Positions 61,752 through 64,000 of a DNA stretch of 64,000 nt are shown here, one piece after another. This DNA comes from Halarcobacter sp. (GTDB lineage: Bacteria; Campylobacterota; Campylobacteria; Campylobacterales; Arcobacteraceae), in contig CP182352.1 of the NCBI GenBank assembly GCA_048571215.1, positions 320,001 to 384,000 on the forward strand, given 5' to 3'. The translations under genes and the position numbers were made by a program. Position 1 is the stretch's first letter. The number at the start of each line of letters is the position of its first letter. The notes beneath the pieces are model-generated. The model was not told the origin of the DNA and made no database searches. It saw only the letters and a list, made by a program, of their open reading frames with translations.

Positions 61752-61971
61752 TTAATTTTCTAAATTTTTTTTGATATTTTGAATAATAGTTTTAAATATT
61801 GGTAGATTGTATCTTATTACATCTTCTATAATATTTTCATCTGTACTATCATAGTCATGTGCAATATAATTTCTTACTGAACTAATACCTTTTAAATCTT
61901 CATTTGTAAAGTTCTCTAGTATTTTCAATACATTCTAAAATCTTATCTAATCGATTAATCACTTTAGACGT
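61752..61971 (-). pseudogene. HEPN (DUF86/HepT-like) toxin pseudogene
   Basis: 5' part (T)SKVINRLDKILECIEN with ACG at the expected ATG; 3' part in another frame ILENFTNEDLKGISSVRNYIAHDY...KKNLEN* with the Rx4HxY motif; only 220 nt in total. Confidence 0.85.
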
Positions 61972-62263
61972 AAACTATGTCCTTCATGATTTTTTTATTT
62001 GTATCAGGTACAAAATCAACTGGTTGTTTGAAAATAGATTGTAGTTCATCTTTTATTGAATCAATTCTAAGAAGTTTAGAAAAACCACCAATATATTTTT
62101 TAGAAAACTTTTCATAATCTAACTTATAAGCAATATCAATATCACTATAGTCTGTGTTAGAATCTTTAGCATAACTACCAAATATTCCAACTATTTCTAA
62201 GCCTTCTTTTTGATATATTGGTTTTAGTTCTTTTAATTTATTTAGTATTTCTTCTTTTCTCAT
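61964..62263 (-). CDS. Minimal nucleotidyltransferase (MNT) antitoxin
   Basis: GIFGSYAK...SDIDI (GSx10DxD) and VDFV; 99 aa; upstream of the HEPN remnant. Confidence 0.9.
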   Translation of the reverse strand: MRKEEILNKLKELKPIYQKEGLEIVGIFGSYAKDSNTDYSDIDIAYKLDYEKFSKKYIGGFSKLLRIDSIKDELQSIFKQPVDFVPDTNKKIMKDIVYV

Positions 62264-62462: not shown

Positions 62463-63517
62463 TGTCTTATAGAGCAAAGCTCTCCGCTTTCTCACTTTTT
62501 AGTTGTAAAAAGTAAGACAAAAAGCAACCAGACGGTTGTTGAAGCTAAAGTTCTCTCCAGCTTTATAATTATCTTCTGACCTGCGGGGCTTGATATAAAA
62601 CGTGACATTCAGTCACCTTTTATATCTTCGAACAAGTCCTCGGTCTTTTCCGAAAATAATTAGAAAACTTCCGGCTTCAACAAAGTCTGGACTAAAATAC
62701 TCTAGCCTTGAATTTTTAAAATAGTTATTGAGTATTACACTAGCTTAAATATAATGGTACTAAAAAATGTAAAGGTCAATTTCCCACCTTCCCGCATTTG
62801 AGAAGCCGAGTGTTTATTTGTCTCTTTTGAAAACAAGTGACTAAACTGTTTGAAGCGTAAAGAAACGTTCTGGGAGAACGTTTTAGCAAGTTTTTAGGCA
62901 CTCAAAAGGGATGAATAAAAAGCTCGGAAAGCTTCCGCCTTCGAAACTCTGTGGGTGGTTTTTTTGCTACTTTTTTTTTCACAAAAAAAAGTCGAGAAAG
63001 TTAAGACGTACAGTAAAAGTTTATTTATACTCAAATATTTTGATAATAGTTCTTATTGTATGCATCTGTCTTGTAGAACAAAGTTCTCCGCTTTCTCACT
63101 TTTTAATTGTAAAAAGTAAGGCAAAAAGCAACCAGACGGTTGTCGAAGCTAAAGTTCCCTCCCACTTCACTTTTTAAAGCTAGCCTGCAAAACTCCTCGA
63201 AAAAGTGACATCTAGTCACTTTTCTCTCGTCAGACAGTTTCGGCTTTTTCCGCTTTAAAAAGCAAAGCACTCGGCTTCAACAAAGTCTGGACTAAATACA
63301 CTAGCCACGAACTTTCTCTTAGTAATTGAGTATCACAGTAATTTTGAATGTAATGGTATAAAAAAATGCAAACATCCTTATCCCTTTCCAACATCTGCAA
63401 GAACTGGAGATTTATGAAATGTTTACGGTGAAAAGTGAGGAATGTGTGAGCGTAAAAAAAGAGTGACTAACTCACTCTTTTAGCGAGTTGCCACCTTAAA
63501 AGAATATAAAAATTCCA
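62463..63517. repeat. Array of four homologous structured non-coding units (two ~600-bp modules, each an inverted pair)
   Basis: 62463.. and 63067.. are direct repeats with a 604-bp offset (about 7 differences in the first 96 nt). 62802-63000 and 63401-63517 are inverted homologues. Long hairpins show compensatory changes. Confidence 0.88.
62728..62755 (+). promoter_or_regulatory. Sigma70-like promoter in the spacer of module 1 (counterpart at 63326-63354 in module 2)
   Basis: TTGAGT-16-TATAAT here; TTGAGT-17-TGTAAT at the equivalent position of module 2. Confidence 0.45.
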
Positions 63518-63536: not shown

Positions 63537-63998
63537 TTAAATTTTTTCTGAATCATATGGTACATTATTTTTATATACGGCATGAGCAATAACTAATAGT
63601 TTTCTCATAATTGCTACTTGTATAACTGTAGTATGTTTTCCATTTTCTTTTAGTCTATCATAAAACTTTCTTAATCTTTCGTTATTTCTTATTGATGTCA
63701 TTGCTGGCATAAACAAAGTACCTCTACATATTTTTGAACCTGCTTTTGATATTTTTGTTTTTCCATTAACTGATATACCTGAACTTTTTTCTATTGGATC
63801 TAATCCTGCTAAAGATACTATCTGTTTTTGATTAGCATTTTTATATTGAATAAAATGTATAAGTAATACAATTGAAGATATTTCTCCTATACCATCAATT
63901 GTTTGCAAATTATTAAATGATTGTTGAAGTTTCTCATCTTTTTTTATGATTGATTTTATTTTTTTGATAATTTTTTGTTCTTGTTTTTTTAAAAATTG
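63537..63998 (-). mobile_element. IS110-family transposase/recombinase, C-terminal half (5' part outside the window)
   Basis: Frame open to the window edge; IDGIG, AGLDPIEKSSG (catalytic Ser), ISKAG...RGTLFMPA, FYDRL...GK...VAIMRKLL. Confidence 0.93.
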
Positions 63999-64000
63999 AT

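Follow-up and report, generated by a model that had tools for sequence, protein, structure and literature searches.

The four structured units close to the end of the analysed window, a stretch of 64,000 nucleotides of DNA, are copies of a multi-copy repeat family that extends over many phyla and whose members share a conserved scaffold with exchangeable stems. We consider it somewhat more probable than an even chance that these units belong to a non-autonomous repeat that lacks genes, acts in the form of folded single-stranded DNA and constitutes a large element of the REP/BIME kind. Two further properties, which become apparent beyond the window, are absent from the initial annotation of this DNA: the units are parasitised by IS110-family elements and they are linked to integron platforms, where they are found in the place of the integrase gene intI.

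Architecture of the array

The array described in the initial annotation, consisting of four units in alternating orientation with complementary stem sequences, was confirmed with respect to the units, their orientations and the quoted pairs at their positions in the window. It comprises three complete units (L1, R1 and L2) of about 215 nt each, followed by an interrupted fourth (R2). Each complete unit forms one long irregular hairpin (P1) and then a shorter hairpin (P2), with fold z-scores of −7.0, −2.8 and −5.1 for L1, R1 and L2, respectively, as obtained from 200 dinucleotide shuffles per unit. L1, a unit of the L subtype, occupies positions 62463–62690 on the minus strand, with P1 located at 62528–62690 and continued by a U-rich linker with hairpin P2 and a small hairpin P3. 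Its central core deviates from the family consensus, and it scores 154.6 bits with the unit model (model R1), in whose training set it is contained. The first head-to-head spacer (62691–62786), which separates L1 from R1, harbours a sigma-70-like TTGAGT/TATAAT match at 62728–62755 that points to R1 and that is weak by itself, since a promoter scan returned seven sites compared to 6.5 expected. R1, of the R subtype (62787–63006, plus strand), consists of P1 and P2 and contains the site that is occupied by a second type of IS110 element in four other R units. The tail-to-tail spacer between R1 and L2 (the 'R tail', 63007–63066) continues into an integron leader instead of an L unit in nine other R units, and its similarity to intI codons is non-significant in the window, where 147 of 300 shuffles are equally good. 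L2 (L subtype, 63067–63290, minus strand) shows P1, P2 and P3 and reaches 165.9 bits with model R1, to whose training set it also belongs, and the second head-to-head spacer (63291–63394) is a direct repeat of the first at a distance of about 599 nt.

R2 had been regarded as truncated and devoid of its 3' part. Instead, it is split by a 1,288-bp IS110-family element with a 4-nt core at 63486–63489. Its 5' part (63395–63489, plus strand) ends at this core, and its 3' part is found at genome positions 384778–384872, 770–870 nt past the end of the window. Upon joining, both halves span profile positions 21–206 of 216 with 75 bits and a z-score of about −3.1 (100 block shuffles), and the sequence of R2 is nearer to L-type units split by the same element than to R1. 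No attI headed by the window's own array was found in a search of the host chromosome with a profile for attI-like sites. Just past L1, at 61752–62263 on the minus strand, resides a nucleotidyltransferase/HepT toxin-antitoxin pair, whose HepT gene looks broken, with a 58-aa frame that matches Pfam positions 70–120 only.

Conservation of the fold

Selection on structure, which had been proposed from the covariation of stems in the window, is supported by two alignments. In a sequence-only alignment of 13 L-type cores, 91.0% of cells are paired and 25 of the 53 pairs have changed on both sides, with a covariation of 0.320 that compares to 0.128 in shuffled controls and to at most 0.128 when slid, the structure for this test having been drawn from those same sequences. 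The corresponding values for 61 matches, in an alignment that was fitted to the model and that contains one antisense self-hit, are 91.8% paired, 49 of 53 pairs changed on both sides and a covariation of 0.616 compared to 0.177. The invariant parts are unpaired or nearly so and include AAGC, an A-rich bulge, GTTTGA opposite of GAG, and the basal loop. Together, these features define a long hairpin with conserved bulges surrounding the GTTTGA/GAG core that is followed by a TACTTT hairpin, where the stems are free to change if pairing is kept, which agrees with the proposed scaffold of exchangeable stems. Bulges and internal loops remain unpaired and conserved across a range of 24% to 71% GC. 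In all 22 L units the same strand folds better irrespective of the use of RNA or DNA energies, and this is also the case for 24 (RNA energies) and 19 (DNA energies) of 26 R units.

Copies in the host chromosome

The initial annotation had named a copy-number search among its checks. An iterated profile search of the host chromosome (G000, 3.61 Mb, 28.5% GC) returned 70 hits in 15 clusters, 55 of which are near full length, and 48 full units divide into 22 of the L and 26 of the R subtype. These units occur singly between unrelated genes, as head-to-head doublets, or as alternating L/R arrays, with gaps between profile hits of 91–94 nt head to head (105 nt in one case) and 77–79 nt tail to tail, and they are accompanied by degenerate and partial copies. 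Variants of P1, P2 and P3 are freely mixed among L units and the printed sequences display three different apical hairpins on one R lower stem, which suggests that units exchange modules. Units are found at the ends of core genes, with ten core-gene boundaries carrying units and differing cargo in four genomes (G000, G012, G016 and G006). The site at rplT is empty in G006, and the mapping of empty sites revealed neither a clean pair of empty and filled sites nor a target duplication.

At one locus, a glyoxalase-like gene is placed between two direct units and at another behind a unit (L040, L041, L043, L146), and a toxin-antitoxin pair shifts its place relative to the units between two genomes (L037, L038), relocations which suggest that unit-bounded cargo moves. 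Other small repeats are found in and near the units. Mini-hairpin insertions of 21–35 nt, a still smaller mobile repeat, recur inside units at several positions and in both orientations, in G000 (e.g. G000:C1:957944, 963435, 1472252 and 2523084) and in other genomes too. A short 'trailer' repeat (ACACCCC, a small hairpin, CCACTTT) occupies about 30 sites in G000 (e.g. 2557861–2557894 and 548515–548550); it is also located upstream of lone R units, truncates cassettes ahead of R units, and recurs in the toxin-tip arrays that are close to the Y1 gene. Finally, another structured repeat family resides beside units after nrdB and carA (G000:C1:2990100-2990330; L344, L351).

Distribution of the family

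The unit model identifies members in 40 of 121 Arcobacteraceae genomes, covering 10 of 22 genera and often with at least 24 matches per genome, and named Arcobacteraceae records score 73–133 bits. In a sample of the phylum, searched with strict filters and a model restricted to Arcobacteraceae, 2 of 151 genomes were positive, both within this family. A pattern composed of the core and the P2 motif extends the range to nine loci in viral collections, at least 120 in metagenomes and at least 123 in named genomes, the latter including Comamonadaceae, Bacteroidales, Gastranaerophilales and CPR bacteria. In 114 of 118 cases, the flanking arms pair better mutually than with the arm of another locus. 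Model R1, which was built from Arcobacteraceae units alone, gives a score to 34 of 80 loci from metagenomes and none to the other 46, and with default filters it finds only 10 of the 80 listed named-genome loci; part of its score in relatives is built in, since these loci were chosen on the core pattern. The two hits are arranged head-to-head in all six metagenome loci that contain a pair of them, the same divergent doublets are present in Variovorax, and Ralstonia megaplasmids carry several unannotated copies. One further genome (G081) holds five equal-scoring copies, of which the fetched one (L054) adjoins the end of an rRNA operon.

IS110-family elements inside units

The element that splits R2 extends on the minus strand from 63486 to the end of the window at 64000 and on to genome position 384777, as delimited by its junctions. 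It encodes a recombinase of 323 aa (Pfam PF02371; NCBIfam NF033542, 172.6 bits at a cut-off of 140), with the right end of the element and the 3' part of the gene contained in the window and the stop located at 63537. All seven full copies of IS110 elements in G000 reside inside units, three at one site and four at another. In the first type, the non-coding region upstream of the gene matches the flank of the window insertion exactly over 12 nt and the other strand over 7 nt, and in the second type the equivalent region matches the corresponding R1 site over 11 nt, while 50 of 3000 random windows show an 11-nt match to the region of the first type. We infer that these matches are guides of putative bridge RNAs. 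Pieces of units flank 21 of 30 fetched relatives of the element at several positions, including all 19 with at least 59% identity, and the clade co-occurs with units in 18 of 22 genomes compared to 7.3 expected, with the reservation that kin are not independent. As the clade is absent, for this query, from 22 of 40 unit-bearing genomes, we read the IS110 element as a parasite of the units. IS110-family elements targeting REP and attC sites are described in the accessible part of an earlier study (PMC11187229). An interpretation of the array as a series of bridge RNAs was rejected, because the units are located outside of the ends of the IS and are themselves split by it, which makes them the target.

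Beside the Y1 gene, C-terminal modules that resemble those of polymorphic toxins form arrays together with small partner genes (G000:C1:2553763-2560911 and 808000-811800), and in several of the spacers 16 nt of the IS110 right end are present although the element itself is absent.

Folded single-stranded DNA or RNA

The initial annotation had offered either RNA or folded single-stranded DNA as the active form of the units, and the loop sequences of relatives point to the latter more than to the former. Among 121 distinct metagenome cores, retrieved with the loop left free, 91 apical loops are triloops with 76 of the GNA type, 8 of 11 tetraloops are GNYA with neither GNRA nor UNCG among them, and a GNA triloop is nested in 11 of the 17 longer loops. 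The bottom strands of attC sites are known to be recognised as single-stranded DNA, and in G000 14 of them contain six GNA and four GNNA loops. The mini-hairpins GCGNAGC and GCGNNAGC are very stable as DNA and much weaker as RNA, as stated in the accessible sections of PMC13037366. The prevalence of GNA triloops combined with the lack of GNRA tetraloops thus favours single-stranded DNA over RNA. Since in Arcobacteraceae units the triloop is replaced by a longer hairpin with non-GNA apical loops, this argument rests on the relatives, whose loci were chosen by the core pattern. GNA and other triloops are not distinguished by their ViennaRNA energies.

We consider it unlikely that transcription starting at the promoter-like motif of the head-to-head spacer instead turns the units into a structured 'free-floating RNA', which would act in trans or belong to a selfish element of the retro type. 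R units of several genera are indeed preceded by a conserved TTGAGT...TAAAAT-like motif, but there is no comparable promoter-like motif upstream of L units, and the promoter scan of the window remained at chance level. Likewise, pieces of relatives' units were detected on contigs of one metatranscriptome (one run with a share of 0.10, of which five records were compared), although such contigs show neither strand nor transcription. One-sided changes of the G-U type are tolerated and the similar motif ffRNA-1 is drawn as RNA in the part of the work of Stav et al. available to us (PMC6429828), whereas the loops of relatives, with their GNA triloops and without GNRA or UNCG, as well as the result of a search of G000, where no reverse transcriptase was found, argue against an RNA.

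Relation to replication

A role that would equally involve single strands, which we regard as improbable, is that of initiation signals, where the units would serve as primosome-assembly or primase sites with SSB-resistant mini-hairpins that prime the second strand at hot spots of gene acquisition and that are retained by the host or the incoming DNA. An AAGCGG hexamer, which we take to be linked to n'-pas sites, follows P2 in many L units, but it varies among copies (AAGCGA, AAGCCA). SSB is bound poorly by mini-hairpins, which are present at the priming sites G4 and ssiA (PMC13037366), and ARRPOF, GEBRO and PAGEV are replication-linked and of similar size (PMC5737381), as far as described in the available portions of both sources. 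However, the dyad of the window has no plasmid or phage match, contrary to the plasmid context that had been suspected for it, and plasmid hits of relatives are mostly multi-copy on megaplasmids. There is also no consistent bias with respect to the replication strand: 11 of 15 clusters in G000, whose origin is uncertain, lean one way, and among listed hits counted by hand in other genomes, 6 of 6 in G292 and 14 of 17 in G065 lean one way and 4 of 5 in G291 and 7 of 8 in G115 the other, contradictory data from which we draw no conclusion. The GC skew of G000 is uneven, with a maximum at 1.17 Mb, a flat region between 3.0 and 3.43 Mb and dnaA at 3.13 Mb.

Units in place of integron integrases

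The second relationship concerns integrons. Behind the last R unit of an array, a leader of about 330 bp can be aligned with PintI, Pc and attI of the one intact integron in G000, whose integrase matches TIGR02249 with 398 bits, and the genes behind such leaders are separated by canonical attC sites. With a profile of the leader, 19 attI-like sites were found in G000, 14 of which have an R unit upstream, 13 at 209–343 nt from the unit and one across an IS110 element, and five are without a unit; these counts are partly circular, as the profile was trained on leaders that it counts, but the true attI alone retrieves eight of the unit-linked leaders. In 20 of 30 loci with an intact integron, including that of G000 itself, the hit of the same profile is situated immediately upstream of intI. 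Thirteen of 19 attC-like hits are located within 6 kb of a unit, a range that covers 6.8% of the genome.

Four of the leaders have retained the start of intI with about 12 codons directly against P2 of the unit (0–1 of 300 shuffles being as good), and they share one junction while their platforms resemble different integron lineages. When the R tail is compared to an eroded intI over 13 leaders, the similarity is significant in four cases, borderline in two and not significant in seven. The same stub junction is found in G012, and other junctions without a stub in genus g42. Among 19 attI-like sites in five other genomes, six are directly preceded by a unit at several different junctions, three by an intact intI, two by a C-terminal piece of intI, three by an intI stub and then a different hairpin element, and five by none of these. 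After guaA, an array is headed by intI in G000 and by a unit in G016. At three loci (L402, L408 and L417 in G115, G065 and G126), intI stubs of about 15 codons are joined to a hairpin element that is not scored by model R1, a second repeat in the place of intI. There are also attI-like platforms with cassette arrays that are accompanied neither by a unit nor by intI (G000:C1:1936000-1940433 and 432642-434800), and a long cassette that is rich in hairpins and has no gene is present twice in the intact integron, once in first position (G000:C1:896496-896695, 898380-898577).

The units themselves are not parts of the integron, and we find it very unlikely that they act as giant attC-like sites or gene-less cassettes recombined by IntI, with an R tail that ends in an attI-like AATAG/TT core. 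Their close association with attI platforms and with attC arrays would be compatible with such a role, as would the recurring point resembling the attI core at which the R tail meets L units or leaders, but the units are placed upstream of attI and not among cassettes, R''/R' boxes are missing from both ends of P1, and members of the family are present in lineages and contexts that have no integrons. Moreover, none was found within 1.5 kb of 30 intact intI genes, and units and intI overlap in 15 genomes compared to 12.9 expected (p 0.41). A related candidate, a giant attC or dif-like module defined by apparent inverted repeats of about 35 bp around R, was rejected since the leader is an integron platform. 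Most improbable of all is a neutral origin of the pairing, in which template switching would perfect inverted repeats in a decaying MITE and the integron link would reflect a shared tolerance for insertion at hot spots, for although A/T-rich stems with run slippage, degenerate and partial copies, and attI platforms that multiply without units or beside another hairpin element would be in line with it, the bulges and internal loops are unpaired and conserved from 24% to 71% GC, folding is strand-asymmetric, units and attI are separated by an almost constant distance and the intI stubs share a single end junction.

Proposed mechanism

If folded single-stranded DNA is indeed the form in which these gene-less repeats are read, a protein provided in trans might bind the bulged core when the strand is exposed during replication or DNA uptake, and it would cut and rejoin the folded strand, which would lead to the spread of copies. 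In analogy to the pair of REP and TnpA-REP, an HUH-type single-strand transesterase would be the most likely candidate for such an enzyme. No mobilising enzyme emerged as a recurrent gene in the flanks of 131 loci or among 65 scanned neighbours in G000. RAYT-like genes show no co-occurrence, being present in 15 of 40 unit-bearing genomes compared to 12.9 expected. The one Y1 gene of G000 is bordered by GGGGACAG-type flanks that fit the TIRYT consensus GGGG[AT][CG]A[CG], as given in the accessible text of PMC6006769, and has no unit beside it. A search for Y2 enzymes gave no match in G000 and none in the controls either, and the single GIY-YIG hit in G000 belongs to a frame of 610 aa that lies apart from the units.

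A unit that inserted near the 5' end of intI, or a deletion proceeding outward from the 3' end of a unit, may have removed the integrase and left attI and the promoter behind. Recombination between near-identical units could swap stems and move a unit together with its platform, or genes flanked by units, from one locus to another, and one intact IntI could serve the orphan attI sites in trans. In its most far-reaching form, which we put forward as a tentative and rather doubtful proposal, folded single-stranded DNA elements of many phyla, moved by a hypothetical enzyme, would actively cut integrases off their platforms and clone the attI/promoter module to various places in the chromosome, so that one integron becomes a dispersed network of at least 12 expressed first-cassette positions that is served by one IntI in trans.

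Comparison with known systems

As in the case of IS110 bridge RNAs, the units of the window are non-coding, structured and adjoin an IS110 gene, but a bridge RNA is located within the non-coding end of the IS and the units are not. An IS110 recombinase clade that is aimed at several positions of the unit would offer natural guide-target pairs on a structured target. In contrast to attC sites and integron cassettes, the units are devoid of R''/R' boxes and not placed between cassettes, and canonical attC sites exist separately, downstream of attI. An Rfam scan of the window and of 20 distant loci returned nothing at the gathering threshold except for an unrelated SAM riboswitch, and at E≤5 only chance-level hits, the best being TD-2 with 23.8 bits compared to 48.7. 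The resemblance to ARRPOF, which is presumably among the 4227 Rfam models scanned, is not supported, as there was no Rfam hit to it at gathering or at E≤5. ARRPOF, GEBRO and PAGEV are similar in length (223–349 nt) and a possible function of single-stranded DNA is raised for them in the available part of PMC5737381, whereas the units are chromosomal and multi-copy, with no Rfam hit and no plasmid match.

There is also a resemblance to REP, BIME and REPIN sequences as characterised in the accessible text of PMC6006769, with which the units share their extragenic location at gene ends, multiple copies, a fold of one strand, and the arrangement as inverted doublets or alternating clusters with fixed linkers. 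These sequences are also targets of IS110-family elements (IS621, ISPa11, ISPpu10), according to the available portions of PMC11187229 and 10.64898/2026.03.19.712850. The hairpins of REP sequences measure 21–65 nt and carry a GT[AG]G foot, whereas units are about 215 nt long and show no such foot in our alignments, and the cognate tnpA-REP is flanked by its repeat, whereas no such gene is flanked by units and RAYT-like genes do not co-occur with them.

The arrays behind R units resemble CALIN (PMC4889954, as far as accessible) in being attC cassette arrays without a neighbouring intI, with a cargo of Mrr, TIR, HNH, kinases, SIR2-like proteins and glyoxalase. Two attC sites or more, with intI absent nearby, are found, for example, at 958–963 kb, 1711–1714 kb and 1976–1978 kb of the genome, where attC sites were called with our own regular expression and folding filter instead of IntegronFinder, and some arrays show only one attC. 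In contrast to CALIN, the unit-headed arrays keep attI and the promoter region, 14 of them in one chromosome, each with the same structured repeat. Integrase loss, IS rearrangement and secondary-site integration are listed as origins of CALIN in the accessible part of Cury et al. 2016 (PMC4889954), which mentions no such repeat and lists the origin of these integrase-less arrays as open, and in literature outside of subscription journals, our more broadly worded searches found no repeat that replaces intI. Since 14 platforms of a single chromosome, and others in two genera, carry one repeat where intI would be expected, with stubs that can be dated, one route to CALIN becomes testable.

The Rfam scan, a check that had been suggested along with the description as a new family, found no matching family, but this description became doubtful in light of ffRNA-1, a motif presented together with ffRNA-2 that is the nearest known system by description. 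In the available part of Stav et al. 2019 (PMC6429828), ffRNA-1 is introduced with an intergenic region of about 760 nt in Arcobacter and comprises 4460 sequences from beta-, gamma-, delta- and epsilonproteobacteria and Bacteroidetes, frequently with many in one species and without gene association; no function is given and it is considered most likely part of a selfish element. Its source region in Arcobacter sp. L (411394–412153) does not appear among the 80 listed loci in named genomes. We found nothing else on this repeat in literature outside of subscription journals. The units share with ffRNA-1 a long P1 with conserved internal loops and a P2, numerous copies, a varied context and a spread over Proteobacteria and Bacteroidetes, and the two are probably the same family, as judged from a comparison by description. 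The available text of that study treats the motif as RNA, and mentions no arrays, no targeting by IS110 and no integrons. The family spans many phyla without an Rfam model, and if it is identical to ffRNA-1, our evidence would move this motif from RNA to folded DNA.
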